NCBI GenBank assembly: GCA_030697795.1
Contig: JAUYOV010000004.1
Location: forward strand, 211,334-275,333
Direction: 5' to 3'
DNA length: 64,000 nucleotides
DNA from: a bacterium
GTDB lineage: Bacteria > Patescibacteriota > Minisyncoccia > JACQLN01
Under the pieces are notes generated by a model. It made no database searches. It was not told the origin of the DNA and saw nothing but the letters and a program-made list of their open reading frames with translations. A program made the position numbers and the translations under genes. Numbering within the stretch: the stretch's first letter is position 1; every line of letters begins with the position of its first letter. Positions 3,613-41,710 of this stretch are shown here, one piece after another.

Positions 3613-3699
3613 GCCCAGGTGGCGGAATTGGCAGACGCACAGGACTCAAAATCCTGCGATGGCAACATCATGAGGGTTCGACCCCCTTCCTGGGCACCA
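3613..3699 (+). tRNA. tRNA-Leu (anticodon CAA)
   Basis: Cloverleaf: 7-bp acceptor stem GCCCAGG/CCTGGGC; anticodon stem CAGGA/TCCTG with loop CTCAAAA, giving anticodon CAA; long variable arm typical of tRNA-Leu; T-loop TTCGACC; discriminator A; CCA is encoded. Confidence 0.85.
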
Positions 3700-14690: not shown

Positions 14691-14707
14691 GTTTTTGAGA
14701 AAAAAAT

Positions 14708-14785
14708 ATCATTCCGAACAGCATTATGGAGAAGACTAATTTATAAATAAAGAGGCTCCATATCGTCTGTGAGGAATGATATTTT
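14708..14785 (+). repeat. About 78-bp structured repeat X, copy 1 (upstream of tatD)
   Basis: About 90% identical to 29077-29157. Nested inverted repeats (TCATTCC/GGAATGA; ATGGAG/CTCCAT). Confidence 0.8.
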
Positions 14786-14787
14786 TA

Positions 14788-16269
14788 CTAGTTTAATCTA
14801 GGAAACAAATTCTCGCCTTTCTTAAAGTTTATTGCGGATTCTGTAAACCAGATTTGTTTTCTAATTTTTTCGCCTGTTTCTGGTAAAAATGGTTCAACCA
14901 AATTTAGTATAACACCTAGCAAGTAGCCAGAATTAGCCATAACTTTCCTAAGATTTTCAGTTGAAACCACGTTTGACGTGGCGTCTTTAATTTCCCAAGG
15001 TTTTTTATCGTTAATATATTTATCGGCAAAAGAAACCAAACCCCAAACATTTATTAAAGCTTCGTGTAATTTAATTTCGTCTAAAGAAGATTCATATGCT
15101 TTATAAAAATCGTTGCAAGCTTTTTTAACTTCTGGTTCTATATCCGTAGCAAAATCAAACTTTACCGGGTTTATTTTTTCGCCCAAAGTAACTGTGCGCG
15201 CTACCAAATTTCCTAAACCATTAGCTAAGTCTGCGGAATATCTATCTTCAAACTTTCTTAAACTAAAATCTCCGTCATCGTAAGAAGGAATTTCTCGTAA
15301 AAGATAGTAACGTAACGCATCTGTGCCATATTTTTGAACCAGTGGCACAGGATCCACAATATTACCCAAACTTTTAGACATCTTTTGCCCTTCCACCGAA
15401 ATAAAACCATGAACAAAAATAGCTTGGGGTAATGGCAAACTAGCCGATAAAAGTATACCCGGCCAAATAGCCGCATGAAAACGTAAAATATCTTTGCCTA
15501 CAACTTGAAGATCGGCTGGCCAAAGTTTTTTAAATTGCTCGGTTTCATCGCCATAGCCAATAGCTGTAATGTAATTAGCTAAAGCATCACACCAGACGTA
15601 TATAACTTGGTCGGGATCGCCAGGCACCGGTACGCCCCACGGCAAATCTTTTTTAGGCCTAGAAAAGCTAACATCCTCTAAACCAGATTCTATAAAAGAT
15701 AAAATTTCATTTTTACGAGATTCGGGAATTATTTTTAATTCGTCATTTTTAATTTTAGAAGCAATCTGGCTTTGATATTTTGAAAGCCTAAAAAACCAGT
15801 TTTCTTGTTCTACTGTTTCTGGTGCTTTTTGGTGATCGGGGCATTTACCATCCACCAAATCTTTTTCTGTTTTAAAAGATTCGCAACCCACGCAATAAAG
15901 CCCGTTGTATTTTTTCTTATAGATATCACCGGCTTCCGAAAGTTCCTGCCATAATTTTTGAACACCTGGCCAATGAACTTCTTGATCGGTTGTTCTAATA
16001 AACCCATCCCAAGAAAGATTTAAAACATTTTTTAACTGTTTAAAATATTCTGCGTTTTCGTTTACAAATTCCTGTGCATTTTTATTCTCTCTTTCGGCTG
16101 CGCGAAAAATCTTAACACCGTGTTCGTCGGTACCCGTTAAAAAGAAAACTTCATCACCTTTTATTCTGTGATAACGCGCCAAAACATCCGCTTGAATCTT
16201 TTCTAAAGCGTGTCCAATGTGCGGTTTCGCATTAACATAATCAATGGCGGTTGTAATATAAAACTTCAT
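14788..16269 (-). CDS. metG: Methionyl-tRNA synthetase (short form, no C-terminal tRNA-binding domain)
   Basis: HIGH motif PHIGHALE and KMSKS; Met-RS catalytic core. 493 aa. Confidence 0.9.
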   Translation of the reverse strand: MKFYITTAIDYVNAKPHIGHALEKIQADVLARYHRIKGDEVFFLTGTDEHGVKIFRAAERENKNAQEFVNENAEYFKQLKNVLNLSWDGFIRTTDQEVHWPGVQKLWQELSEAGDIYKKKYNGLYCVGCESFKTEKDLVDGKCPDHQKAPETVEQENWFFRLSKYQSQIASKIKNDELKIIPESRKNEILSFIESGLEDVSFSRPKKDLPWGVPVPGDPDQVIYVWCDALANYITAIGYGDETEQFKKLWPADLQVVGKDILRFHAAIWPGILLSASLPLPQAIFVHGFISVEGQKMSKSLGNIVDPVPLVQKYGTDALRYYLLREIPSYDDGDFSLRKFEDRYSADLANGLGNLVARTVTLGEKINPVKFDFATDIEPEVKKACNDFYKAYESSLDEIKLHEALINVWGLVSFADKYINDKKPWEIKDATSNVVSTENLRKVMANSGYLLGVILNLVEPFLPETGEKIRKQIWFTESAINFKKGENLFPRLN

Positions 16270-18712: not shown

Positions 18713-19621
18713 TTAAAAATAGAATAGCAGTTTTTGTTTTATATTAAAACCCTTACAATGCCTCAAAACTCCCAAATACGAATCTACATTTTTCTCATTA
18801 ATCTTTCTTAACATCCTTCTTTTTGTTTTAGTCCTCAAAACCCTATGGTTAGGCAAAACCACATAACCCAGAAAATCTATACCCTGCCTGTATTTACGAA
18901 TAATTATTTTGTCTGGATGCAAAAATAGCTTTAGATTCTCAAAAAGAAAAGTATTAATTTTGTAAGACAGATTTAATAAATAATATTTATTACTTCCTAA
19001 AATAACAAAATCATCGCAGTAACGAATATAATACTTTTCTTTTAAGTTATGTTTAACAAATTGGTCTAATTCGTTTAAATAAATATTGGCAAATAACTGG
19101 CTGGTTACATTGCCTAAGGGTAACCCTTTGTTAAAACTACCTATTATTTTCTCAACCAACCATACAGCATTATCGTCTTTGATCTTTAGTTGAATCAATT
19201 TAATTAGAGCATCTTGATCTATGGAATCAAAAAACTTTTTAATATCACACTTTAAAGCAAAAATAGTTTGGCTATTGTTTTGGCTTAACTTACGACAAAA
19301 AGTTTCTAGTCTTGTTACTGCTTTGTGTGTTCCTTTGCCTATTCGGCAAGAATAAGAATCAAACATAAAATGTCTATCGAATATTGGATATAAAACTCTA
19401 AAAACAGCTTGATGTAAAACCCTGTCGCGTACACAAGCTTTATGGATATGACGCAATTTTGGGTCGGTAACATAAAAAGGAATATACTGGCTGTGTTTAT
19501 ATGTTTTATTTTTTAATTCGCTATGCAGTTGAAACAGATTATCTTCTAGGTTAAAATCAAATTCTTGAACATCCAACCTTTTTCTTTTGCCTTTTTTAAA
19601 TTCGCGCCAAGCTAAAAACAA
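18713..19621 (-). CDS. DGR reverse transcriptase (RT1)
   Basis: Matches DGR RTs along its length. N-terminal LAWREFKKGKR. Motif 4 is LGNVTSQLFANIYL, the I/LGxxxSQ DGR hallmark. YxDD motif is YCDD. Confidence 0.85.
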   Translation of the reverse strand: MFLAWREFKKGKRKRLDVQEFDFNLEDNLFQLHSELKNKTYKHSQYIPFYVTDPKLRHIHKACVRDRVLHQAVFRVLYPIFDRHFMFDSYSCRIGKGTHKAVTRLETFCRKLSQNNSQTIFALKCDIKKFFDSIDQDALIKLIQLKIKDDNAVWLVEKIIGSFNKGLPLGNVTSQLFANIYLNELDQFVKHNLKEKYYIRYCDDFVILGSNKYYLLNLSYKINTFLFENLKLFLHPDKIIIRKYRQGIDFLGYVVLPNHRVLRTKTKRRMLRKINEKNVDSYLGVLRHCKGFNIKQKLLFYF

Positions 19622-20024
19622 GTTTTCTAAGCTAATAATTTTTTTAAAAATATTATGGAAAATTTCTCCATTAAAGCCCCCCCCCTACGGAGTTGAAATA
19701 TCGCTGGTGCATAAAATTTGTGAATTGTATAAATTATTCCACGAATGTTTGAAAATATTTCCCAAGACGGAACGATTTACTTTGGGCCAAAAAATTGAGA
19801 ACACCATTCTAGAAATTTTAGAACTAATCCTTTCAGCCAGTTACCAATCAAAATATGGAAAAAGTGAAACCTTAATAAGAGGTAGCGATAAAAATGACCT
19901 TCTAAAGTATCTTATCCGTCTTGCTCACGATACCAAATCAATCAATATAAAAAAATATCTATTAGTTGAGGAAAAGGTTTTAGAAATAGGTCGTATGTTA
20001 GGTGGCTGGATAAAATCCAACTAA
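19587..20024 (+). CDS. avd: Avd-like accessory variability determinant (four-helix-bundle family); true start probably near 19709-19718
   Basis: Paralogous to the two other Avd-like ORFs and shares the C-terminal IGRMLGGWI motif. Alignment to those paralogs places the N-terminus near VHKICELYK. Confidence 0.7.
   Translation: MPFLNSRQAKNKFSKLIIFLKILWKISPLKPPPYGVEISLVHKICELYKLFHECLKIFPKTERFTLGQKIENTILEILELILSASYQSKYGKSETLIRGSDKNDLLKYLIRLAHDTKSINIKKYLLVEEKVLEIGRMLGGWIKSN
19677..19686. repeat. Homopolymer C10 in the divergent RT1/avd1 promoter region
   Basis: 10 consecutive C, 56 bp upstream of the RT1 start codon and about 25-30 bp upstream of the likely avd1 start. Confidence 0.9.
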
Positions 20025-20055
20025 ACTTTGCAAAGAGCGCCTAAAAAATAAGGCG
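20024..20055 (+). terminator. Intrinsic terminator after avd1 (AGAGCGCC-loop-GGCGCTCT followed by a T-run)
   Basis: 9-bp GC stem and U-tract. Lies between avd1 and TR1. Confidence 0.5.
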
Positions 20056-20180
20056 CTCTTTTGTTTGGAAACTACCAGAGGACGACCAGCTATGTTGTCG
20101 TTGCGATTGCTAGACCAATTGTAGTTGACGTTGGCTAGACCACCGTTCTCACGGTTACCACCGTAAAGCCGGCTGGAGTC
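20054..20180 (-). repeat. DGR template repeat TR1 (AAC-rich on the minus strand)
   Basis: About 127 nt, nearly identical to 20491-20618. All 8 differences are A in TR1 versus C/T/G in VR1. TR1 encodes GGNRENGGLANVNYNWSSNRNDNIAGRPLV. Confidence 0.85.
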
Positions 20181-20431
20181 CTCAAATTTTTGCTTTAAAC
20201 CGTCCATAATCACCGAAAATCTAAATATAAATTTTCTGAAATCCGCATCCCACGGATAGTTTTTTACTCGGCAACTCTTAAATAATCTAAGAATACCCGA
20301 TCTAGTTTAAAGCAAGGAGTTTCGTTATTTCCTGTTTTAAACAGGAGAGTAAATGCGAGAATAAACCTTAGTCTATTCTTCATTAGCTTTACTCAAGGAA
20401 AATTTTACCAAATTTGTGAAAATAAAAAAAT

Positions 20432-20486: not shown

Positions 20487-21320
20487 CTACTTTGCGAAAC
20501 TCACCAGAGGACGACCAGCTATGCTGCCGCTGCGATTGCTAGACCAATCGTAGTTGACGTAGGCTAGACCACCGTACTCACGGTGACCACCGTAAAGCCG
20601 GCTGGAGTCCTCAAACTTATCGTCGAACCACTCCCACATATTGAATCGGCCGCGATTGCTGTCGTAGAGATTGCCAATGGCATTGGACTCTACAGCCCGC
20701 TCCAACCGAACCTGTTCGGGTTTGAAACCGAATGCTTCGGCGATAGCAGGACAAACCACATCTCGCCATTCATCGTTGGTAATGGCAAAACGAGAGCCCG
20801 AAGGAGTATTATCGTGTTTGCCGATTTTTCCTTCTTCGCGCAATTTACTGATGATTAGCGCGAGAGGGTCATTGGAAAATACTTGCGTGCCGTCGGTGTA
20901 ATTCACACCGACGGTGAAATCAGCTAGATACCAACCTCTGTAGAGTTTGGCACTGTCGGGGGCGAGCTTGCCTTCCCCGATTTTCTGGTAGAACCATTTT
21001 TCAGGTTTTACCCAATTCTTGAGCTTGCAATTCTCGCCAATTCCTTCCATCGGCAGATATACCGGCCTGAAGTCGAACCCAGCCCACTTGGCCAAGTTCT
21101 CTTCGGTGAATTCGGGAGGCAGAGGATCAACATCCACACGGAAGAACTTTTGAAGCTTCTTCTGTGTTGCCTCCACTAAAGCTACCAGCAAAGACACTAT
21201 GCGATGTTCGTTGAAAGCTTTAACACTTTCCAAAGTGTGACTGCCGTCATCTATCTGACGGAAAAAATCTTTGAGCACGCCGGACCACGCCGACATCTCA
21301 CCGACTGGGGCATTAGCCAT
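20487..21320 (-). CDS. DGR target protein 1 (FGE/C-type-lectin-like C-terminal variable domain); GC-rich
   Basis: VR1 lies at the C-terminus. The pattern WEWFDD...RLYGG...GRPLV resembles FGE-type CLec folds. Strong SD AGGAGA upstream. Confidence 0.75.
   Translation of the reverse strand: MANAPVGEMSAWSGVLKDFFRQIDDGSHTLESVKAFNEHRIVSLLVALVEATQKKLQKFFRVDVDPLPPEFTEENLAKWAGFDFRPVYLPMEGIGENCKLKNWVKPEKWFYQKIGEGKLAPDSAKLYRGWYLADFTVGVNYTDGTQVFSNDPLALIISKLREEGKIGKHDNTPSGSRFAITNDEWRDVVCPAIAEAFGFKPEQVRLERAVESNAIGNLYDSNRGRFNMWEWFDDKFEDSSRLYGGHREYGGLAYVNYDWSSNRSGSIAGRPLVSFAK
20491..20618 (-). repeat. DGR variable repeat VR1 (3-prime end of target 1)
   Basis: Encodes GGHREYGGLAYVNYDWSSNRSGSIAGRPLV at the C-terminus of the 277-aa ORF. 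Confidence 0.85.
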
Positions 21321-25542: not shown

Positions 25543-25870
25543 ATAGATGAATTGTATCGTAACAAGAGAAAAATATCACGCTAAAGGAATGTTATAATAT
25601 TCATATCCTGCTAATGCAGTTTGAACCATGGTTCAAACTCGCGGGATATCTCATTTTTGCCTTTCCGCCAAAGCTTTACGGGCGGTAAAAGAATCGCCAG
25701 AGTATTAAACCTTACGGGGTTTAATAGCGTGCGAACTAAAATGGAGATGGAACTTCTTGCTTGTTTTTGGTGGAGATTCCGCCAAAGGCGGATGCTCCCA
25801 AGTAAAATTCAGGAAAGAAGAAACATAAATTTCATACTTTCCGGTGATATTGGATGGAAACAAGCAAAAT

Positions 25871-25992
25871 CTTGACTCCGATGGCAACCGCGTTAGCGTC
25901 GGCAACTTCGATCAGAACGGCCTCAACATCAACAACAACTGGGACGATAACCGCAACGACAATCTTGGCCTGGCCTCCTCTCGAACTTCCAT
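25871..25992 (+). repeat. DGR template repeat TR2 (AAC-rich on the plus strand, non-coding location)
   Basis: Matches the reverse complement of 27629-27749. Encodes VGNFDQNGLNINNNWDDNRNDNLGLASSR, versus VR2 VGDFDRFGLYFDYDHDDNRYDSLGLASSR. Confidence 0.75.
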
Positions 25993-26037: not shown

Positions 26038-26388
26038 TCAATGAGTTTTTGACGAGCGGATCCAACCGCCTAACATCCGCCCTATCTCATTAACCATTTC
26101 CTGAATTAAAATATATTTTTTATTCTCTAAAACACCAATATCTTTAGCCAAGCGGACATAAACCCTAAAAAGATTGAGCTTAACACTAACTCTTTCTAAG
26201 TATGTTACTCTTTTGAGCTTATCCAAACTGCTTATTTCCAACAAATAGCCCAATATCTCAATCAAAATCAAATTGCATTTCTCGCCTAAAGAATACTTGT
26301 CTTGCTTGGGAAAACCTTTCAAACAAGCATAAAATTCTTTATATAAATCGTAGGTTTTTTTAAATAGCGGAATATCAAAACTATCCAT
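26038..26388 (-). CDS. avd: Avd-like accessory variability determinant (avd2)
   Basis: 116 aa. C-terminus EIGRMLGGWIRS. Paralog of avd1 and avd3. Start diverges from RT2 with a 2-nt overlap. Confidence 0.75.
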   Translation of the reverse strand: MDSFDIPLFKKTYDLYKEFYACLKGFPKQDKYSLGEKCNLILIEILGYLLEISSLDKLKRVTYLERVSVKLNLFRVYVRLAKDIGVLENKKYILIQEMVNEIGRMLGGWIRSSKTH

Positions 26389-27382
26389 GAAAATTTATCA
26401 AAATATATACGAACAAATAATCTCTGCCGAAAATTTGTTTCTAGCTTGGGCAGAATTCAAAAAAGATAAACAAAAAAGAAAAGACGTTATGCAATTTGAA
26501 TACAGGCTGGAAAAAAATATTTTAGGCTTGTGCCAAGAACTAAAAAATCAAACATATAAGCATAGTCCTTATAGTAATTTTTATATAACCGACCCCAAAC
26601 CCAGGCACATTCACAAAGCATTGGTTAGAGACAGAGTGGTGCACCATTCAGTTTTTAATATCCTTAATCCTGTTTTTGAAAAAACTTTTATCTTTAATTC
26701 TTATTCCTGCAGAAAAAACAAAGGCACTCACAAGGGCATAAACCAATTACACAAAATTTTAAGAAAAATAAGCCAAAACAATCATAAACCATGCTTTATA
26801 TTAAAATGCGATATTAAAAAATTCTTTCAATCAGTTAATCACGGTATTTTGTTAAATATTATTGATCGAAAAATATACGATGAAAAAGCATTGGCCTTAA
26901 TTAAAGAAATTGTAGAGAGTTTTAAACCCGGGTTGCCCATAGGCAACCTAACCAGCCAATTATTTGCCAATATTTATTTAAATAATCTGGACCAATATAT
27001 AAAGCACCATTTAAAAATTCCCTTTTATATAAGATATACCGATGATTTTGTGATTATTTATAACGATTTGGAAAAACTAAAACAGTGGCTTAGCCAGATT
27101 CAGGAATTTTTAAATGTAAACCTAAAACTACGTCTGCATCCCAATAAAGTTATTCTGCGCAAATATCATCAAGGAACTGATTTTTTGGGCTATGTGCAAT
27201 TTCCCCATTATTGTATTTTGCGCCCTAGAACCGAAAGAAGAATAATGAAAAGGATACAGCAGGGAGTTTCTGAACAATCGCTAAATTCATATCTAGGTGT
27301 GCTTTCTCATGCTAATAGTTATAAATTATCGGAAAAAATCAAAAACTTGTTTTGGTTTAATAAAAAAGAAAACCCGTCTTGA
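26387..27382 (+). CDS. DGR reverse transcriptase (RT2)
   Basis: IGNLTSQLFANIYLN (SQ motif); IRYTDDFV. Matches RT1 and RT3 along its length. Confidence 0.85.
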   Translation: MKIYQNIYEQIISAENLFLAWAEFKKDKQKRKDVMQFEYRLEKNILGLCQELKNQTYKHSPYSNFYITDPKPRHIHKALVRDRVVHHSVFNILNPVFEKTFIFNSYSCRKNKGTHKGINQLHKILRKISQNNHKPCFILKCDIKKFFQSVNHGILLNIIDRKIYDEKALALIKEIVESFKPGLPIGNLTSQLFANIYLNNLDQYIKHHLKIPFYIRYTDDFVIIYNDLEKLKQWLSQIQEFLNVNLKLRLHPNKVILRKYHQGTDFLGYVQFPHYCILRPRTERRIMKRIQQGVSEQSLNSYLGVLSHANSYKLSEKIKNLFWFNKKENPS

Positions 27383-27622: not shown

Positions 27623-28396
27623 CTATTTGGAACTTCGAGAGGAGGCCAGGCCAAGACTGTCGTAGCGGTTATCGTCATGGTCGTAGTCGAAGTAGAGGCC
27701 GAACCGATCGAAATCGCCGACGCCAACGCGGCTGCCATCGGAGTCAAGAGACGAAGTTCGGACATAGGTGTGTTCGAACAGTCGCTCACCAGTAGCCATG
27801 AAGTGGCCAATGATGGCGTAGACCACCACTTGCGCCTTCGGTGTTTCCTCGTCTTTGCCGAGTAGCTTCTGCTGATCATCCCAAGTCTTGGACGTGGAAT
27901 CCATAACCGGAGTTTTGCGGACGAGATGCCATCCGACTTCGCCCTTGTATTTGGCAAAAGTCTCCTTGTTGTACCAATCCTGTTCATAAAACAGGCGCTG
28001 ACCGTTGTTAGCGACCTTGCCTCGGATGTCCAGGATTGAGAGAGGAAAAATGGCGACAAGGGTATGCGTGTCTCTTGCCTCGGTAAGCTCGGCTTCAGTG
28101 AACGGAACTTCGGCCAAAGCCGAGATCTGCGCTCGCGTGGGCTTTACACCGAGATACTGAATCGCTTCCTCTACCCCAAACATGTTGCGCCCCATTATCT
28201 GATGGGCCGTTTTCTGCGAAGTGGTGGCTTCATAGCCGCCGTTGCTGATAAGCCTAACCACTTTCGTGGCAAGGTCATTGCCCTTGGAGCCTATGACTCT
28301 CTGGGCAAGTTCATCGTTGAGGCCAGCGGCCTCAAGTTTTAGGAGCACTTCATGCTCTTTGTGCACCGACAGAGTACGGCTCACGATGGTTTCCAT
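27623..28396 (-). CDS. DGR target protein 2 (C-terminal variable domain); GC-rich
   Basis: 257 aa. VR2 at the C-terminus. Strong SD GGAGGT upstream. Confidence 0.75.
   Translation of the reverse strand: METIVSRTLSVHKEHEVLLKLEAAGLNDELAQRVIGSKGNDLATKVVRLISNGGYEATTSQKTAHQIMGRNMFGVEEAIQYLGVKPTRAQISALAEVPFTEAELTEARDTHTLVAIFPLSILDIRGKVANNGQRLFYEQDWYNKETFAKYKGEVGWHLVRKTPVMDSTSKTWDDQQKLLGKDEETPKAQVVVYAIIGHFMATGERLFEHTYVRTSSLDSDGSRVGVGDFDRFGLYFDYDHDDNRYDSLGLASSRSSK
27629..27749 (-). repeat. DGR variable repeat VR2 (3-prime end of target 2)
   Basis: See TR2. About 13 mismatches at TR adenines. In addition, one codon differs at all three positions (TGG in TR, CAT in VR) and there is one C/T difference. 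Confidence 0.75.
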
Positions 28397-29038: not shown

Positions 29039-29076
29039 AAACGGTAAAAGTATAACATGTATCCTAAATTAAAATT

Positions 29077-29157
29077 ATCATCCCGAACAGCATTATGGAG
29101 AAGACTATCTTATATAAATAAAGAGGCTCCATATCGTCTGTGAGGGGTGATAATTTT
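29077..29157 (+). repeat. About 80-bp structured repeat X, copy 2 (upstream of recO-like, divergent from the GT39 gene)
   Basis: See copy 1. The outer stem shows a compensatory change (TT/AA to CC/GG). Confidence 0.8.
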
Positions 29158-29211
29158 TCTTAAAAACTTGCTGGCGAGCGAAAGAGCAATTTTTAAGCTA
29201 AACTATTAAAC

Positions 29212-34370: not shown

Positions 34371-37300
34371 TTAAATATTTTTAATCCCCACCCCGATTTC
34401 AAATCCTTCATAATTCCAAACTTTGTGGACCAAGAAATTTTCGTGTTCGGTTATGCCAAAGTTAATTTGTGTAGAACGAGTTTCGGCTTTTATAACTTGT
34501 TCCCAACGAGTTAATAATTCTTTAAAGTTGGCGTTTTGGTTAAGTTCGTAATGTAAAATTATTTTATCTTCTGGTGTTAATTTGGCTTCTTTTCGCATTT
34601 CGTTTATATTGCGAATCATTTCACGAACCATTCCTTCTTCCTTAAGCTCCGCCGTAAGTTCGGTATCCAAATTAACGTTGTTCTTTTCTATTTTTCTATC
34701 ACTTAAAACTTTTTTAACATTGAGTTCTTCGGCAACTATATATAGAACATCGCCAATTAAATTGTAATCAGCCGGTGAAACATATAAAGCATTTAAGGGC
34801 TGGCGTACGCGCAAACCCGCTTGAGCGCGCTCGGCAAGCCCCAGCGCCACAATTTCGCGGGCTCTATCCATGACTTTCGTAATATCGGAAGCCTTAACAG
34901 TTTTGGTATTTGGCCATTTTTCCAAATGAACCGACTCCCCAAACGCCGATAAACGCCGATTTTTATCCGCGCTGATCCGCGCTGATCCTTGCGTTAATCC
35001 GCGTAATTCTTGATAGAGCCATTCCGATATAAACGGCGCAAATGGCCCCATAACAACAGATACGCGTTTTAAAACTTCGGTTAAAGTATTTTGAGCCGAT
35101 AGTTTTTCGGCATCTATATTTTGCTTTTGGAACTTACGGCGGCTACGGCGTATATACCAATTAGAAAGTTCGTCTATAAAAGCTTCTATAGCACGCGAAG
35201 CGGAAGTAATGTCGTAGCTTTCTAAAAATTTATTTACTTCGAACTCCAACATTTCTGTTTTAATCAAAACCCATTTATCTAAAATATCTGTTTTGGCTAG
35301 TAAAGATTTCGGAGCTTCGGTGTAATAAGTTTCTAAAAACAAAAACGAATTAATTAAAGTATCGGCGAATCTACGTTTTTTAGATTCTATATCGCGCAAA
35401 CTAAAAAGTTTATTATCGCCCGGCGCGTTTACAGTGTAAAAATACCAACGCATCATATCGAACCCAACTTTCTCACCCACCAGCCAAGGGTCTACAATGT
35501 TCCCTTTAGACTTCGACATCTTCTCGCCCTTTTCATCTAGAACATGGTTTAAACTAATTACATTCTTATACGGATTACCTTCGCCTAAAGCGGTAGATAC
35601 CGCCATTAAAGTATAAAACCAGCCCCGGGTTTGATCGATCGCTTCGCAAATATAATCTGCTGGAAAATGGTCTTTCGGTAAATTTTTATTTTTTATATTT
35701 AAATTTTTCTTGTCCTTCGAAGCCTTGCTGTGCCACTCCGTAGCTTTGAGCGAAGGGTGGGCGTAGGAGGAAACTTGAGACGCCCACGGCATTGCACCCG
35801 AATCAAACCAAACATCGGCCAAGTCTTTTATACGTTCCATCTTCGAGGAACACATAGAACACTTAAGGAACACGCTATCGGCATAGGGGCGATGCAGGTT
35901 TAAATTGCCTTCTTCATCGTGGGGCCAGTTATTTGTTTCTACAAAAGTAAATTCGGCAGGGGACAAAGCTAGTTTAGAATCTTTAACTGCGTTTTGATAC
36001 AAAAGTTTTGTTTCGTCTTCGCCATAAATTCCATTAGATAATTGCATTAAAAATAAGGGGTCCATATGGCTTACCACAACCACCTTCTTGCCAGCGTGTT
36101 CTCTAGAAACATCCATCATAAATTCGCGCACCCGTTTGGCCACATCCAACCACGATTCGCCTGCCGGCGCGGGGCGAATAAATTTATCTTTAAAAGAATT
36201 AAAATATTTTTCATATTCCAAAAATGGCCCGCCATTAAACTCGCCAGTGTTTATTTCGCGTAAGCGTTCATCAAAAATTACTTCTTTTATTTTAAGTTCG
36301 TCCGCCAATATTTGAGCCGTCTCTCTGGCTCTTAATAGATCCGATGAATATATGGCCGATACCTTATTAGCCGCCAAAAGTTTTTTTATATTTTGGGCGG
36401 ATGCCTCTGCTTGTTTTCTACCCTTTTCGGTTAGGGGGTTTAAAATCTTTTCAGGGTAAGCACTGCAAATACCTTTAGCGTTAGATTCTGCTTCGCCATG
36501 GCGCATTAAAATTAAAGTGGTTGGAGAATCTAGGCGGTGTTCGTTAAGCTCGGCTAAAGAACCAATAACAGTTTTGTGTTCGCATTTGGTGCATGCCCAA
36601 ATTGGCAAGGGTGTTCCCCAATAGCGTTCGCGGCTTATAGCCCAGTCTTTAACCTCGCGTAACCATTCGCCAAACCGGCCATCTTTAATGTGTTCGGGCA
36701 CCCAATTAACTTTTTCGTTATTTTTAATTAGATCGTTTCTTAACGCCGACATTTTTATAAACCAACTTTCTTGGGCGTAATATAGTAAGGGCGATTTACA
36801 CCTCCAGCAAAAAGGATATTCGTGCTTATAGCTTGACTCATTAAACAGCAAATTTTGTTTTTTTAAGTAAAACAAAATCGTTTTTTCGGTTATGGGGTCT
36901 TTTTTGTTTTCACTAACAACAGCAAGCCCGCCTACTATAGGAACAGATTTTACAAAAACTCCTTCACGATTAACCGTGTGGAATTTAGGCAAATTTAATT
37001 TGGAACCGAGTTCAAAATCGTCGACGCCATACATTACGGCTGTATGCACAATGCCCGTACCATCTGCGGTAGTTACAAAATCGGCTTCGTAAACTCTGTA
37101 CGAATTTTCGGATTCCAACTCTTTAACAGCAAAAAGTGGTTCGTAAGAAAGTCTAGTAAGCTCGCTAGAAGTTAGTTCTTTATTTATTTTGTATTCTACT
37201 TTAGCCTCGCCAAAAACTTTAGGCGCTAAATCGCGAGCCAAAATATATTTTTCACCATTAGCTTCGACTTCTACATAGGTAACTTTCGGGCCAACAGCTA

Positions 37301-38003
37301 ACGCAACATTTCCCGGTAACGTCCAAGGCGTCGTGGTCCAAGCCAAAAGAAAAGTGTTTTCTCCGCCAGCTGGCGGATTTTTAACTTTAAATTTTATTAT
37401 GACCGACTTATCTGTAACTGTTTCGTAACCCTGCGCCACTTCGTGGCTGGAGATGGGCGTACCACACCTAACACAAAAAGGCACAACTTTATAATCTTTA
37501 ACTAAAAGTTTTTTATCGTAAATTCTTTTTATAATATTCCACAAACTTTCTATGTATTGCGGTTCGTAGGTTATGTATGGGTTTTTAAGGTCGAGCCAGT
37601 AACCCATGCGGCGCGTTAGCTTTTCCCATTCATCTTTATACTGCCAGACTGATATTTGGCATTCTTTATTAAATTGAGCGATGCCGTATTTTTCTACTTC
37701 GCGCTTATTTTTTAAACCTAATTTTTTTTCGACTTCAATTTCTACCGGCAAACCGTGTGTATCCCAACCAGCCCGACGCAAAACATAGCGCCCTTTCATT
37801 GTTTGAAAACGGCAAACAATATCTTTAAACGATCTAGCTAAAACATGATGGAGCCCTGGTTTACCGTTGGCCGTAGGCGGGCCTTCGTAAAATACGAAAG
37901 GTTTACCATCTTTAGTGGCTTTTAAAGTCTTTTCAAAAACATCGTTATCGTGCCAATGTTTTAAAACTTTTTCTTCTTCTTGGGGTAAATCAACGTGACG
38001 CAT
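34371..38003 (-). CDS. ileS: Isoleucyl-tRNA synthetase with an inserted histidine-phosphatase (PGAM-like) domain and repeat-derived in-frame inserts
   Basis: HIGH-type motif PPTANGKPGLHHV; KMSKS; editing domain. The insert LILMRHGEAESN...VVVSHMD (RHG and second His motifs) sits between WACTKCEH and LHRPYAD. Confidence 0.9.
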   Translation of the reverse strand: MRHVDLPQEEEKVLKHWHDNDVFEKTLKATKDGKPFVFYEGPPTANGKPGLHHVLARSFKDIVCRFQTMKGRYVLRRAGWDTHGLPVEIEVEKKLGLKNKREVEKYGIAQFNKECQISVWQYKDEWEKLTRRMGYWLDLKNPYITYEPQYIESLWNIIKRIYDKKLLVKDYKVVPFCVRCGTPISSHEVAQGYETVTDKSVIIKFKVKNPPAGGENTFLLAWTTTPWTLPGNVALAVGPKVTYVEVEANGEKYILARDLAPKVFGEAKVEYKINKELTSSELTRLSYEPLFAVKELESENSYRVYEADFVTTADGTGIVHTAVMYGVDDFELGSKLNLPKFHTVNREGVFVKSVPIVGGLAVVSENKKDPITEKTILFYLKKQNLLFNESSYKHEYPFCWRCKSPLLYYAQESWFIKMSALRNDLIKNNEKVNWVPEHIKDGRFGEWLREVKDWAISRERYWGTPLPIWACTKCEHKTVIGSLAELNEHRLDSPTTLILMRHGEAESNAKGICSAYPEKILNPLTEKGRKQAEASAQNIKKLLAANKVSAIYSSDLLRARETAQILADELKIKEVIFDERLREINTGEFNGGPFLEYEKYFNSFKDKFIRPAPAGESWLDVAKRVREFMMDVSREHAGKKVVVVSHMDPLFLMQLSNGIYGEDETKLLYQNAVKDSKLALSPAEFTFVETNNWPHDEEGNLNLHRPYADSVFLKCSMCSSKMERIKDLADVWFDSGAMPWASQVSSYAHPSLKATEWHSKASKDKKNLNIKNKNLPKDHFPADYICEAIDQTRGWFYTLMAVSTALGEGNPYKNVISLNHVLDEKGEKMSKSKGNIVDPWLVGEKVGFDMMRWYFYTVNAPGDNKLFSLRDIESKKRRFADTLINSFLFLETYYTEAPKSLLAKTDILDKWVLIKTEMLEFEVNKFLESYDITSASRAIEAFIDELSNWYIRRSRRKFQKQNIDAEKLSAQNTLTEVLKRVSVVMGPFAPFISEWLYQELRGLTQGSARISADKNRRLSAFGESVHLEKWPNTKTVKASDITKVMDRAREIVALGLAERAQAGLRVRQPLNALYVSPADYNLIGDVLYIVAEELNVKKVLSDRKIEKNNVNLDTELTAELKEEGMVREMIRNINEMRKEAKLTPEDKIILHYELNQNANFKELLTRWEQVIKAETRSTQINFGITEHENFLVHKVWNYEGFEIGVGIKNI
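34941..35009. repeat. ATCCGCG-unit repeat in frame inside ileS
   Basis: AAACGCCGATAAACGCCGAT...ATCCGCGCTGATCCGCGCTGATCC..TAATCCGCG. Confidence 0.7.
35714..35770. repeat. Small palindromic repeat family, copy in frame inside ileS
   Basis: CCTTCGAAGCC...CCGTAGCTTTGAGCGAAGGGTGGGCGTAGGAGG. Confidence 0.7.
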
Positions 38004-38022: not shown

Positions 38023-39018
38023 TTAAGCTAGCGGAAAATAAGACATTAGTAAAATATCGGTAATTCCATAAGTATTCCCATGCTTCAACAACCCCAAATA
38101 AGAACTTACCGTTTCTGGCTCTGGGTTCTCTCCAATTCTTTTCATCATCCGTTTTTTAGTAACTGTTCTTAAAACTTTATGATCTGTAAAATGAACCCAA
38201 CCCAAAAAATCCGCACCCGAAGCTAGAGTTTTGATAAAAACTTTGTCGGGGTGGAGTGTGAGTTTGAGATTTTTAATTAAAAATTCTTGAATCTTTGGGA
38301 TTAAGTTCTCTAACCATTCTTTGTCTTGCGATAAAACCACAAAATCATCGGGGTATCTAATGTAATACTTAACTTTTAATTTATGTTTAACAAACTGGTC
38401 AAACTTGTTCATATAGATATTCACCAAAAGCTGGGAGGTTAAATTGCCCAAGGGCAAACCAATATTGGGTTTTGTTTTAAAACTGGACACAACATTATTG
38501 AGTAACCAAATAATATTTTTGTCTGGTATATATTCAGTTAGTATCTCTAGCAAAACTTTGTGATGAATACTGGAAAAGAATTTTTTAATGTCGCATTTTA
38601 AGACCCAGCAAGTTTTAGTGTTATTTTGACCAACTTTGTAAGCAAAAGACTGAAAACGATTCAGGGCTTTATGCGTGCCTTTGTTCTTTCGGCAAGAAAA
38701 AGAATCGGCTATGAATGTTTTATCAAAGAAAGGGTAAAGAATATGATAAATTGCGTGGTGAAGTAGCCTATCCCGAACTGTGGCTTTATGTATGTTTCGG
38801 GGTTTGGGGTCGGAAATATTGAAAGCTTGGTAAATGCCATGCCGATAAGTGAAATTGACCAAGTCTTGGTTAAGTTGAAAAATATTATCCATTAAATTAA
38901 AGCCAAATTCCTGCACATCTTTTCTTTTTCTCTTGCCTTTGATAAACTCCTGCCAAGCCAATAACAAATTATCAACGCTAATAACATCTTCAAAACTATG
39001 GATCAATTGAGTTTTCAT
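38023..39018 (-). CDS. DGR reverse transcriptase (RT3)
   Basis: LGNLTSQLLVNIYMN (SQ motif); IRYPDDFV. Paralog of RT1 and RT2. Confidence 0.85.
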   Translation of the reverse strand: MKTQLIHSFEDVISVDNLLLAWQEFIKGKRKRKDVQEFGFNLMDNIFQLNQDLVNFTYRHGIYQAFNISDPKPRNIHKATVRDRLLHHAIYHILYPFFDKTFIADSFSCRKNKGTHKALNRFQSFAYKVGQNNTKTCWVLKCDIKKFFSSIHHKVLLEILTEYIPDKNIIWLLNNVVSSFKTKPNIGLPLGNLTSQLLVNIYMNKFDQFVKHKLKVKYYIRYPDDFVVLSQDKEWLENLIPKIQEFLIKNLKLTLHPDKVFIKTLASGADFLGWVHFTDHKVLRTVTKKRMMKRIGENPEPETVSSYLGLLKHGNTYGITDILLMSYFPLA

Positions 39019-39035
39019 AATTCTACATTAAGTAA

Positions 39036-39046
39036 CCCCCCCCCCC
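39036..39046. repeat. Homopolymer C11 in the 53-bp divergent RT3/avd3 intergenic region
   Basis: 11 consecutive C. A similar C10 tract at 19677-19686 sits between RT1 and avd1. Confidence 0.9.
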
Positions 39047-39071
39047 GAGACTTCCACCGCTGATTGATAAA

Positions 39072-39443
39072 ATGAAAAATCTCTATTTTATCTGGTTTCA
39101 ATACTACCAGATTTTACCCAAAGCGCATCGCTACACGCTTGGCCGCAGAATTGACTCTATGTTTATTGAAATAGTTGAAGCGATAGTTACAGCGTCTTTT
39201 CTAACGCAAGAAAAGAAGCTCCCGTTTGTTCAGCACGCCCTTCGCAAAACAGACACGCTTAAAATCCTATTACAAGTATTATGGGAAACTAAATCTTTAG
39301 ATGATAAAAAATATATAGCCGTATCAAAACCTTTAGAAGAAATCGGCAAAATGCTGGGTGGCTGGAATGGCCAGCTTCAAAAACCCCTCGACATAGCTCG
39401 GGATAAAGAAAACTCTCCCCACAAAAAGCAGAGAGAGAAATAA
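39072..39443 (+). CDS. avd: Avd-like accessory variability determinant (avd3)
   Basis: 123 aa. C-terminal EEIGKMLGGW motif. Confidence 0.75.
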   Translation: MKNLYFIWFQYYQILPKAHRYTLGRRIDSMFIEIVEAIVTASFLTQEKKLPFVQHALRKTDTLKILLQVLWETKSLDDKKYIAVSKPLEEIGKMLGGWNGQLQKPLDIARDKENSPHKKQREK

Positions 39444-39447
39444 AGAA

Positions 39448-39573
39448 AGTTGCGAGCACGGCCGAAGGATTGTTGGCATTCCAGTCGTTCTCAAGCCAGT
39501 TGTAGTTCCAGTCCCACTCACCATCGTTCCAGTAGAGATAAAGAACGTTGCGGTTGCCATTCGGACTGCGAAT
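39448..39573 (-). repeat. DGR template repeat TR3
   Basis: Encodes RSPNGNRNVLYLYWNDGEWDWNYNWLENDWNANNPSAVLA. Begins 5 nt after the avd3 stop. Confidence 0.85.
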
Positions 39574-39902: not shown

Positions 39903-40547
39903 TTAACTCGCGAGCACGGCCGAAGGATCGTAGGCACTCCAGCCGCCCTCAAGCCAGCGGCAGTACCAGCCCCACCCACCACCGCCCCAGCAGAGACAAA
40001 GAACGTAGCGGCGGCCAAGCGGACCGCGAAGGGTGGTGCCGTCAAAGGAAATGAAGGTGGTATTGCTGTTCGTTTTTTCTTTCCAACTTTCGGGAATAAG
40101 ACTCTTGTTTTCCCAGAGAGTTTGGAAGATTTTGGCATCTAGGCGGACGTAATTTTTGGCTTTGAGGCGCTTCAGTTTCTCTTCACCTTTGATGACACTC
40201 TCGTCTTCTTTGAGGCAAGTGACTAACTGGATGTTGGAGAGGTCTAGCTCGGTGAGGTTGAGAGAGCGCTCATCCTGTTCTTCCTCGCCCGAGAGACCAT
40301 CGCCATCTGCTGGACCTTTCCAGATGCTCCAACCTTCGCCCAAAAACTGGGCGGGGTTGAAGGGTTGGGTGCGGTTGATTTTTAAGACCGTATCTCCAAA
40401 ACGCCCCTCCACCGCATTCTGCAAATAGCGTTGGAGTTTTGCCGGATCGTAGGGATAACCCTTGGGCTGACGAAGCTGTCGGCCAATTTCAAAAAGCTGG
40501 CCAGTGATGCTTTCGTACAGTTCGCCTGCGACACTAGGATGTGCCAT
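39903..40547 (-). CDS. DGR target protein 3 (C-terminal variable domain); GC-rich
   Basis: 214 aa. VR3 at the C-terminus. Confidence 0.8.
   Translation of the reverse strand: MAHPSVAGELYESITGQLFEIGRQLRQPKGYPYDPAKLQRYLQNAVEGRFGDTVLKINRTQPFNPAQFLGEGWSIWKGPADGDGLSGEEEQDERSLNLTELDLSNIQLVTCLKEDESVIKGEEKLKRLKAKNYVRLDAKIFQTLWENKSLIPESWKEKTNSNTTFISFDGTTLRGPLGRRYVLCLCWGGGGWGWYCRWLEGGWSAYDPSAVLAS
39905..40030 (-). repeat. DGR variable repeat VR3 (3-prime end of target 3)
   Basis: Encodes RGPLGRRYVLCLCWGGGGWGWYCRWLEGGWSAYDPSAVLA. 24 substitutions relative to TR3, all at TR adenines. Confidence 0.85.
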
Positions 40548-41260: not shown

Positions 41261-41620
41261 CGGGGATGACATGAATCGACAAGGAACGTATCGATAAGAA
41301 TTCGAAGCTGAGGTAGACCACAAACTCATAAAACTGGTTACAAATAGTAAGTGCAAACTTATTTAGCGCTAATAAACCAGCGTTTGCTGTAGCTTAAAAT
41401 CTATCAGCCATCGCCCTGTTTTCGCCCGAGTAAACAGTGTGCGGTGCCAACCTTTCGGGCCGCTCTTTCAGGCCAGGCGAACTTGAAAGCTAAGACAACG
41501 CCAAAAGTTTAATTTTTTTCACCATTCTTTAAGGGTTAAACTTAAATTAAGAATGGTTAGGCTTCGTACTAGTTCAATCGAGAAATTTTTTGTACGCGGG
41601 TTCAATTCCCGCCATCTCCA
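41261..41620 (+). ncRNA. ssrA: tmRNA (ssrA)
   Basis: 5-prime end GGGGATGACATGAATCGACAAGG matches the canonical GGGGnTGAnnnnGAnTCGACnGG. 3-prime tRNA-like end GTACGCGGGTTCAATTCCCGCCATCTCCA has a T-arm and a 7-bp acceptor stem pairing with the 5-prime end. Immediately downstream of smpB. Tag ORF ends ...PAFAVA-stop. Confidence 0.8.
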
Positions 41621-41710
41621 CTGCTACGCCAAGGCTACGCAGTGCACGCACCAATCTAAACAAGACATGCTATATTAATTGAACGATCTTGTTAGATTAG
41701 AATAGTAGCA

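Follow-up and report, generated by a model that had tools for sequence, protein, structure and literature searches.

To our knowledge, the regulation of diversity-generating retroelements (DGRs) is largely unknown, and the stretch of DNA analysed here poses this question in a concrete form. The stretch, hereafter called the window, comprises 64,000 nucleotides (nt) from a bacterium of the Patescibacteriota (assembly GCA_030697795.1, contig JAUYOV010000004.1, positions 211,334 to 275,333 of the forward strand). It carries three DGRs (DGR1, DGR2 and DGR3), and in two of them a long run of cytosines stands between the start of the reverse transcriptase (RT) gene and that of avd, the gene of the DGR cofactor Avd, which is read in the opposite direction. 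What could such a run be doing there? An earlier note on this DNA saw in the two runs a slipped-strand on/off switch of diversification, acting through promoter spacing or, in DGR1, possibly through the avd reading frame. The idea of a switch is supported by a repeat at the same junction in most related loci, by natural length polymorphism and by the toggling of the avd frame; the promoter mechanism is not supported. The best-supported reading, which the sequences compared below make probable though far from certain, is slipped-strand phase variation of Avd that would gate DGR mutagenesis.

Two cytosine tracts at homologous positions

The tract of DGR3 is a run of eleven cytosines (C11) at positions 39036-39046 of the forward strand, that is, G11 on the strand of the RT gene, exactly where the earlier note had placed it. 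The tract of DGR1 had been given as C10 at 19677-19686, which is one base too long: base 19686 is a T, and the run is C9 at 19677-19685 of the forward strand, or G9 on the RT strand. That such runs are rare in the surroundings is borne out, as these two are the sole C or G runs of at least 7 nt across the whole 64 kb (GC content 38%), the runners-up being two C6. From the base frequencies of the window about 0.06 runs of at least 9 nt would be expected, and the two observed lie at homologous positions in two cassettes, a pairing far beyond chance.

Both tracts lie between the annotated starts of the divergent genes, namely the ATG of RT3 at 39018 and that of avd3 at 39072 in one cassette, and RT1 and the GTG of avd1 at 19707 in the other. 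The C11 sits 17 nt upstream of the RT3 ATG and the C9 sits 5 nt upstream of the RT1 start. DGR2 has no tract, as had been noticed before. The three RTs are mutually just 52-55% identical, so the shared position of the tracts in DGR1 and DGR3 is not the product of a recent duplication. A search of the window against Rfam matched a tmRNA and a tRNA away from the tracts and nothing close to them, and an exact-protein look-up of avd3 and RT3 found no second contig, each protein being present on a single NCBI contig.

A repeat conserved at the avd/RT junction

Related loci were collected through their RT, 80 from species-representative genomes and 80 from metagenomes, all of them from Patescibacteria, also known as the Candidate Phyla Radiation (CPR). 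Their RT identity to RT3 ranges from 61 to 84%, the closest being 84% in the genome collection and 81% in the metagenomes. Sequence upstream of the RT is present in 152 of the 160 loci, which form the denominator of the survey.

A divergent avd gene occurs in 148 of these 152 loci. In 133 of them a run of G6 to G14 on the RT strand is found directly upstream of the RT start, with G10 (49 loci), G9 (40), G8 (18) and G11 (13) as recorded lengths, and the homopolymer is invariably G on that strand. Another 11 loci carry (GT)n, (GA)n/(AG)n or (CT)n in place of the G-run, and eight have no repeat, which leaves a slippage-prone repeat at the avd/RT junction in 144 of 152 loci (about 95%). Since the homopolymer can be swapped for other repeat types at the same site, what appears to be conserved among these sequences is mutability, or repetitiveness, and not a G-specific motif.

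The repeat is also nearly confined to this place. Of the G/C runs of at least 8 nt in 700 kb of non-redundant flanks, 114 are tracts at the junction and only two lie elsewhere; for dinucleotide repeats the corresponding figures are 11 and one. The complete list of these other long repeats consists of an (AG)7 and a C9 in locus L034 (about +1613 and +1868 from the RT start) and a G8 in locus L082 (+3367), which may point to other genes under a switch or to a second cassette.

The repeat is also a frequent breakpoint of assemblies. In nine contigs the sequence ends 1-38 nt upstream of the RT start, in several of them inside the repeat, and only one ends at most 60 nt after the RT; the contigs of L013, L050, L102, L151 and L172 have an end at the repeat, with several beginning inside a G-run or a dinucleotide repeat, and in the scaffold of L009 (about positions 2940-2990) an N-gap abuts the G10. 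Such breaks are what is expected of heterogeneous repeats, or of their poor coverage.

The tract is part of avd

Where, then, does avd begin? In both tract-bearing cassettes an ATG on the avd strand precedes the tract and opens a short open reading frame (ORF):

38998..39063, forward strand: conserved avd3 start and its ORF, with the ATG at 38998-39000, antisense to RT3 codon 7 (CAT)
19655..19696, forward strand: upstream avd1 ATG (19655-19657) and its ORF, reading into the DGR1 tract

A stop-free frame leading from an avd-strand ATG into the tract is found in 120 of the 120 non-redundant tract-bearing loci, compared with 58% at RT-antisense controls. In most loci this ATG is what RT codon 7 (CAT) reads on the other strand. 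One stretch of 21 nt (38998-39018 in the window) thus specifies the beginnings of both proteins, M-K-I-Q-L-x-H for RT and M-x-Q-L-N-F-H for Avd. Within this antisense overlap the two N-termini are reverse-complementary codon for codon, an arrangement that is general across loci L001-L193.

The loci without a run of at least 6 nt are especially informative. In all six (L077, L100, L116, L135, L192 and DGR2 of the window) the upstream start is in frame with avd, giving ORFs of 116-147 amino acids (aa), an outcome with a chance probability of (1/3)^6, or about 0.001. In the avd-strand translation a conserved Avd N-terminal motif, L-P-(V/I)-(L/I)-Q-K, begins 3-30 nt past the tract, and the proline that follows the tract uses all four synonymous codons. 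When a hypothetical in-frame avd3 was used as a query against a protein database, many predicted Avd proteins of 134-154 aa were retrieved, laid out as M-x-Q-L-N-F-H, a short variable linker, two to four prolines (PP, PPP or PPPP) and LLPLLQK, with the tract at about codons 13-17. An AlphaFold model of one such long homologue, built on a 34-sequence alignment, has a mean predicted local distance difference test (pLDDT) score of 83.5; residues 1-20, including the prolines, form a low-confidence tail, followed by helices at 21-37, 42-67, 71-97 and 103-130. According to this model the tract would encode poly-proline in a disordered N-terminal tail, where whole-codon changes would be tolerated.

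At the level of sequence, these comparisons show the apparently intergenic stretch to be the 5' coding end of avd. The earlier note was right to place the tracts between the RT and avd starts, and its label of a divergent intergenic or promoter region fails, this being coding sequence in the relatives. Its proposal of a reading-frame effect on avd1 was of the right kind and extends to both cassettes, with the starts at the conserved ATGs 19655 (avd1) and 38998 (avd3) in place of the suggested TTG at 19587. The long avd1 ORF from that TTG has no counterpart in the relatives, many of which have avd-frame stops just upstream of the tract. Public annotations, including the 123-aa avd3 of NCBI, start avd downstream of the tract and miss the antisense overlap.

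Frame states and natural length alleles

With the conserved ATG as the reference, avd is in frame (ON) in 27 of the 120 loci, one nucleotide too long in 64 and one too short in 29, a distribution that departs from uniformity (chi-square p = 2e-5). Thus, 93 loci are OFF, the commonest class, with 33 loci, having a G10 in place of the G9 that the frame requires. In the window, translation from ATG 38998 through the C11 gives MDQLSFHNSTLSNPPPRDFHR and stops at TGA 39061-39063, an OFF state; avd3 would be joined to this ATG by a C12 or a C9 (39072-38998 = 74). Similarly, ATG 19655 read through the C9 gives MENFSIKAPPLRS with a stop at TGA 19694-19696, also OFF, and a C8 or a C11 would connect it to avd1 (19707-19655 = 52). 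In this assembly both tract-bearing cassettes are OFF and DGR2 is constitutively in frame; the genome thus provides its own control in DGR2, a cassette with no switch next to two that are switchable.

Repeat number also differs between nearly identical natural populations. Two loci from different samples, L092 (G10, OFF) and L093 (G9, ON), are otherwise identical over 5969 nt. Further alleles were found by grouping contigs whose RT proteins are identical. The set of RT protein P0155 comprises one contig with G9, which is ON and encodes an Avd of 130 aa, and three with G10, which are OFF and encode 33 aa. In the set of P0167, with eight contigs, the repeat is (TG)n with n = 10, 11, 13, 13, 14, 14, 14 and 18; avd is in frame at n = 18 alone, with 140 aa as opposed to 25-66 aa at the other repeat numbers, and two of the contigs differ from the reference solely in the repeat. 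A comparison of tract length across related populations, which the earlier note had named as a check, thus finds it polymorphic between otherwise identical contigs at these homologous loci (L092/L093, P0155 and P0167), with a toggling of the frame.

The variable region (VR), the part of the target gene that a DGR rewrites, adds a further observation. Among the four long contigs of the (TG)n-polymorphic set (L165-L168, positions 548-621), the remaining differences cluster in the VR, at 23 positions. In three fixed-OFF sets (L161-164, L173-175 and L176-179) the compared stretch includes the VR, which does not differ between assemblies. Diversity of the VR where the repeat varies, and its absence where the frame is fixed OFF, is consistent with a silent OFF state, in a comparison of few populations, some of them possibly re-assemblies of related samples. 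VR variation is a possible natural read-out of the state of the switch.

Phase variation of Avd as the proposed mechanism

The mechanism that we propose would work as follows. The avd ORF would start at the ATG opposite the first RT codons, and its translation would run through a short disordered tail, in which the C-run supplies two to four prolines, into the four-helix bundle. Slipped-strand mispairing during replication would alter the run by one nucleotide in either direction, or by one unit in the dinucleotide repeats of the relatives, and such a change would move the bundle in or out of frame, so that either full-length Avd (ON) or a peptide ended by a stop after about 13-30 codons (OFF) is made. 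In this manner the repeat would give subpopulations a heritable and reversible on/off control of mutagenic retrohoming. The last step leans on a known system: in the bRT-Avd pair of the Bordetella phage, Avd is required for cDNA synthesis by this type of RT, so an OFF avd frame would be expected to silence retrohoming.

The steps of this proposal differ in standing. That the tract lies within a conserved ORF, the consequences of its length for the frame, the conservation of the repeat across the clade and the natural length alleles can all be read directly from the loci compared. We infer that switching within a lineage is frequent and reversible, and an OFF frame would presumably abolish Avd function. 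That the loss of Avd silences diversification would be expected by analogy with the phage system. At the sequence level the tract has the features of an intragenic contingency locus, in that a slippage-prone repeat (a homopolymer of about 7 nt or more) lies inside an ORF and near its 5' end.

Several observations weigh against this proposal. The OFF share of 78%, together with the skew towards frames that are one nucleotide too long, is unlike a simple unbiased switch. Four of the six same-RT sets with a G-tract are monomorphic across 7-15 contigs, and all four are OFF (P0199 with G9 in 15 contigs, P0181 with G8 in 7, P0203 with G10 in 9 and P0153 with G9 in 7), which means that switching is not rapid at the level of consensus sequences. 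About 40% of the loci have TTG, ATG or GTG at the first conserved residue of the bundle, where TTG makes up 47% of the leucine codons as compared with 18.5% in the body of the gene; a shorter Avd could be made in the OFF state from such codons, for example from ATG 39072 or GTG 19707 in the window. The window's own tracts are known from one assembly, the length polymorphism coming from the loci of relatives, and differences of 1 nt between G9 and G10 in Illumina assemblies could be consensus errors. Finally, the upstream ATG of avd1 is off the usual RT-codon-7 position and RT1 is frameshifted; DGR1 may simply be decaying.

Alternative explanations

Some of these observations are the starting point of constitutive recoding, in which a +1 slip of the ribosome (tRNA-Pro on CCC-C, helped by poly-proline stalling) or a stutter of the RNA polymerase would produce a small fixed fraction of Avd from nominally out-of-frame alleles, the tract being an attenuator of expression with no heritable switch. 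CCC-C is a known +1-prone motif, and the commonest state of the loci (64 of the 120, with G10 for G9 in 33) is the one that a +1 shift would correct; the fixation of several populations in the OFF state across many assemblies would also follow naturally. Nevertheless, the 11 loci with dinucleotide repeats at the site are unable to support the same recoding, and no single frame is conserved, the opposite OFF frame being found in 29 loci and the ON frame in 27. Real length alleles at the DNA level and the invariant VR of the fixed-OFF sets also speak against it, and we regard it as unlikely. More doubtful is a stricter form of the idea, where the tract is a programmed recoding site, the one-too-long frame is the designed state and Avd is made only through a +1 slip on CCC-C while ribosomes stall on poly-proline. 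If it were true, DGR hypermutation would be tied, through programmed recoding, to the state of translation in the cell (EF-P or the modification of tRNA-Pro), leaving DNA slippage as a second, heritable layer of control.

The mechanism favoured by the earlier note, in which tract length tunes the transcription of RT, avd or both through -35/-10 spacing or the structure of the RT 5' leader, draws on the closeness of the tracts to the RT starts, on the invariable G of the RT strand and on the fact that any change of length also alters the region upstream of RT. In a subset of the relatives a TAnAAT hexamer follows the G-run, with the ATG 7 nt further on, as in a leaderless promoter, and a weak YTTAAAAGG consensus occupies positions +1 to +9 past the tract. 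However, this motif is also the antisense of a conserved peptide in the Avd tail (...S-x-F-N...) and need not be a promoter. Promoter and terminator scans of the window gave background-level matches, none of them straddling a tract, and no sigma-70-like -35/-10 pair was found across either tract, a weak negative given how poorly CPR promoters are known. The distance from the tract to flanking landmarks varies from 3 to 62 nt without compensation for tract length (rho about -0.1), and a promoter would predict neither the open frame into all 120 tracts nor the six in-frame loci without one. We therefore hold promoter tuning to be improbable as the principal role of the tract, with a secondary effect on RT expression being possible.

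About equally improbable, in our judgement, is that the tract decides no more than an isoform. In this case Avd would always be made from an internal start (TTG, GTG or ATG), and the repeat would only determine the presence of a tail of about 20 residues. The enrichment of TTG at the first bundle codon fits such a start, as do the ATG 39072 and GTG 19707 of the window, the 123-aa form annotated by NCBI and the predicted disorder of the tail. Against it, in 42 of the 93 OFF loci the stretch from the tract to the conserved region offers neither ATG nor GTG nor TTG, the TTG enrichment is equal in ON and OFF loci, and the preservation of the upstream ATG and its open frame in every locus would be hard to explain for a dispensable tail.

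Other roles were considered for the tract. A non-B-DNA structure or supercoiling insulator between divergent promoters is possible but would leave the regularities of the frame unexplained, and a leader peptide, with poly-proline stalling in an upstream ORF coupled to a downstream start, is disfavoured by the tract-less loci, which fuse the upstream ORF to avd in frame. The G-run was rejected as a Shine-Dalgarno sequence, its distance to the RT start varying widely and the run being replaceable by (GT)n, (CT)n or (GA)n; a sequence-specific RNA or DNA element, such as a G-quadruplex or part of a spacer in the template RNA, was rejected on account of the same replacement. An artefact of homopolymer miscalls or assembly errors, or a functionless mutational hotspot, is very improbable in spite of the contig breaks at the repeat and of the error-prone reading of G/C homopolymers on Illumina instruments, because the tract recurs at the same position and strand in 133 of 152 loci from many independent projects and assemblers, is nearly absent elsewhere in the flanks, persists across RT lineages that are 52-84% identical and has (TG)10-18 alleles that cannot be miscalls.

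The three cassettes and their surroundings

The window contains three genuine DGRs, as judged from Pfam matches to RVT_1 (E values for the three RTs of 6e-26 to 2e-20) and to bAvd (PF22296, above the cut-off for the avd genes), and from adenine-specific pairs of template repeat (TR) and VR. In all three alignments, taken on the RT strand, the mismatches are confined to adenines of the TR, and the VRs lie at the 3' ends of their target ORFs. The order on the RT strand is target with VR, TR, inverted avd, tract and RT, which corresponds to the B3 architecture, TR-(avd)-RT. The nearest relatives of the RTs are DGR-type RTs of Patescibacteria with a matching neighbourhood. The features of the cassettes are as follows:

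38023..39018, reverse strand: RT3, DGR reverse transcriptase of 331 aa (RVT_1), identical to protein P0121; its first 7 codons are antisense to the avd3 start
39072..39443, forward strand: four-helix-bundle body of avd3, 123 aa (Pfam bAvd), 100% identical to NCBI protein P0001
39447..39572, reverse strand: TR3, template repeat; all VR3 mismatches are at TR adenines on the minus strand
39905..40030, reverse strand: VR3, at the 3' end of target ORF 39903-40547 (reverse strand, 214 aa)
18713..19671, reverse strand: RT1 (RVT_1), with the frame of its body at 18713-19621
19707..20024, forward strand: body of avd1, the Pfam bAvd match beginning at GTG 19707
20074..20189, reverse strand: TR1, from the repeat alignment, with adenine mismatches
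20503..20618, reverse strand: VR1, at the 3' end of target ORF 20487-21320 (reverse strand)
26038..26388, reverse strand: avd2 of DGR2 (bAvd), without a tract and in frame
26387-27382, forward strand: RT2 (RVT_1)
25870-25991: TR2, from the repeat alignment
27628-27749, in target ORF 27623-28396 (reverse strand): VR2, from the repeat alignment

In DGR2 the ATGs of avd2 and RT2 overlap by 2 nt (26387-26388, in a CATG context), and Avd has a shorter tail, MDSFDIPLFKK. The RT1 gene has a peculiarity of its own, as the frame of its body lacks a canonical start. An ATG at 19671-19669, as many codons away from the conserved 'IIS' motif as in the homologues, is 1 nt out of frame and meets a stop after 14 codons. 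Between this ATG and the body lies a T5-A7 run (19650-19639, reverse strand), and the two frames would be rejoined there by one additional A or by a -1 slip on A_AAA_AAA; the break could be a second switch, a sequencing error or a sign of decay of DGR1.

The sense strand of the TRs is the RT strand, and a TR-RT co-transcript would run antisense through the whole of avd (39072-39572 and 19707-20189). The full complementarity to be expected of the avd mRNA and the TR RNA over about 350 nt suggests a possible mutual interference.

Directly downstream of RT3, positions 34371-38003 of the reverse strand hold an ORF of 1210 aa that resembles isoleucyl/class-I tRNA synthetases, with a histidine-phosphatase domain (His_Phos_1, residues 497-650) that interrupts the catalytic domain between its two halves. 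The DGR3 target gene has a tmRNA gene some 700 nt away (41262-41623, forward strand), and positions 3613-3699 of the forward strand hold a tRNA-Leu(CAA). An intergenic element of about 88 nt occurs in two copies (14702-14789 and 29071-29160) that are 85-92% identical and 14.4 kb apart. Neither copy matches an Rfam family at the gathering threshold; possible identities include a small RNA, a terminator and a regulatory sequence.

Comparison with known systems

The closest functional parallel is with the contingency loci of Neisseria, Campylobacter and Haemophilus, such as hmbR/hpuAB and the genes for capsule and lipooligosaccharide (LOS), where a G/C run of about 8-11 nt near the 5' end of an ORF shifts the gene in or out of frame through slippage of one nucleotide in either direction. 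Mixed ON and OFF alleles of intragenic poly-G/C loci in natural populations of Neisseria and Campylobacter are described in two studies (PMC3786947, PMC8355987). The loci studied here differ from these in several respects. Their hosts are free-living or episymbiotic Patescibacteria of groundwater and not mucosal pathogens; the gene that would be gated encodes a cofactor of hypermutation instead of a surface antigen or a restriction-modification enzyme; and the 5' leader of a second gene, divergent and overlapping, contains the tract too. Moreover, the repeat is not strain-specific and is conserved throughout a clade of retroelements.

Repeats between divergent genes have precedents in the (TA)n of Haemophilus influenzae hifA/hifB, which lies in overlapping divergent promoters, and in the poly-C promoter tracts of Bordetella fim, both of which act on -35/-10 spacing. 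As in those systems, a single repeat between two genes could affect both of them; in contrast with them, the data here favour an effect on the translational frame of one gene, a promoter role being unsupported. The DGR of the Bordetella phage BPP-1 (avd-TR-brt) resembles the cassettes of the window in its RT, its four-helix-bundle Avd and its TR/VR pair, whose mismatches are adenine-specific. The phage avd, by contrast, points the same way as TR and brt, and we know of no repeat in that element.

The B3, TR-(avd)-RT architecture was reported in 90% of the DGRs of CPR bacteria (Wu et al. 2018, PMC5758913), and the same gene order and orientation are found in the three cassettes of the window and in 148 of the 152 relatives. 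The Avd starts of annotated B3 DGRs differ from those proposed here in lying downstream of the tract. Neither that survey (PMC5758913) nor the other DGR surveys covered describe a homopolymer, a repeat, an overlap of the avd and RT starts or frame switching. In the literature searched, which did not extend to the CPR DGR paper of Paul et al. 2017, we found no link of DGRs, Avd or Patescibacteria to repeat-mediated phase variation. The combination of a clade-conserved repeat switch that would gate a hypermutation machinery, environmental CPR bacteria and a 21-nt antisense overlap thus appears to be new.

Implications

According to DGR surveys, the CPR is the lineage reported to be richest in DGRs, and uncontrolled mutagenic retrohoming should be costly to its bearers. 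If phase variation of Avd is the correct reading, most DGRs of Patescibacteria would carry a built-in stochastic switch, in which a hypermutable repeat gates the cofactor of hypermutation itself, and only a subpopulation would diversify its target protein at any one time. For annotation, avd would be systematically misplaced throughout this clade, its true start lying upstream, in antisense overlap with RT. And the ON or OFF state, which would be readable from tract length in metagenomes, would offer a testable predictor of which natural DGRs are active.

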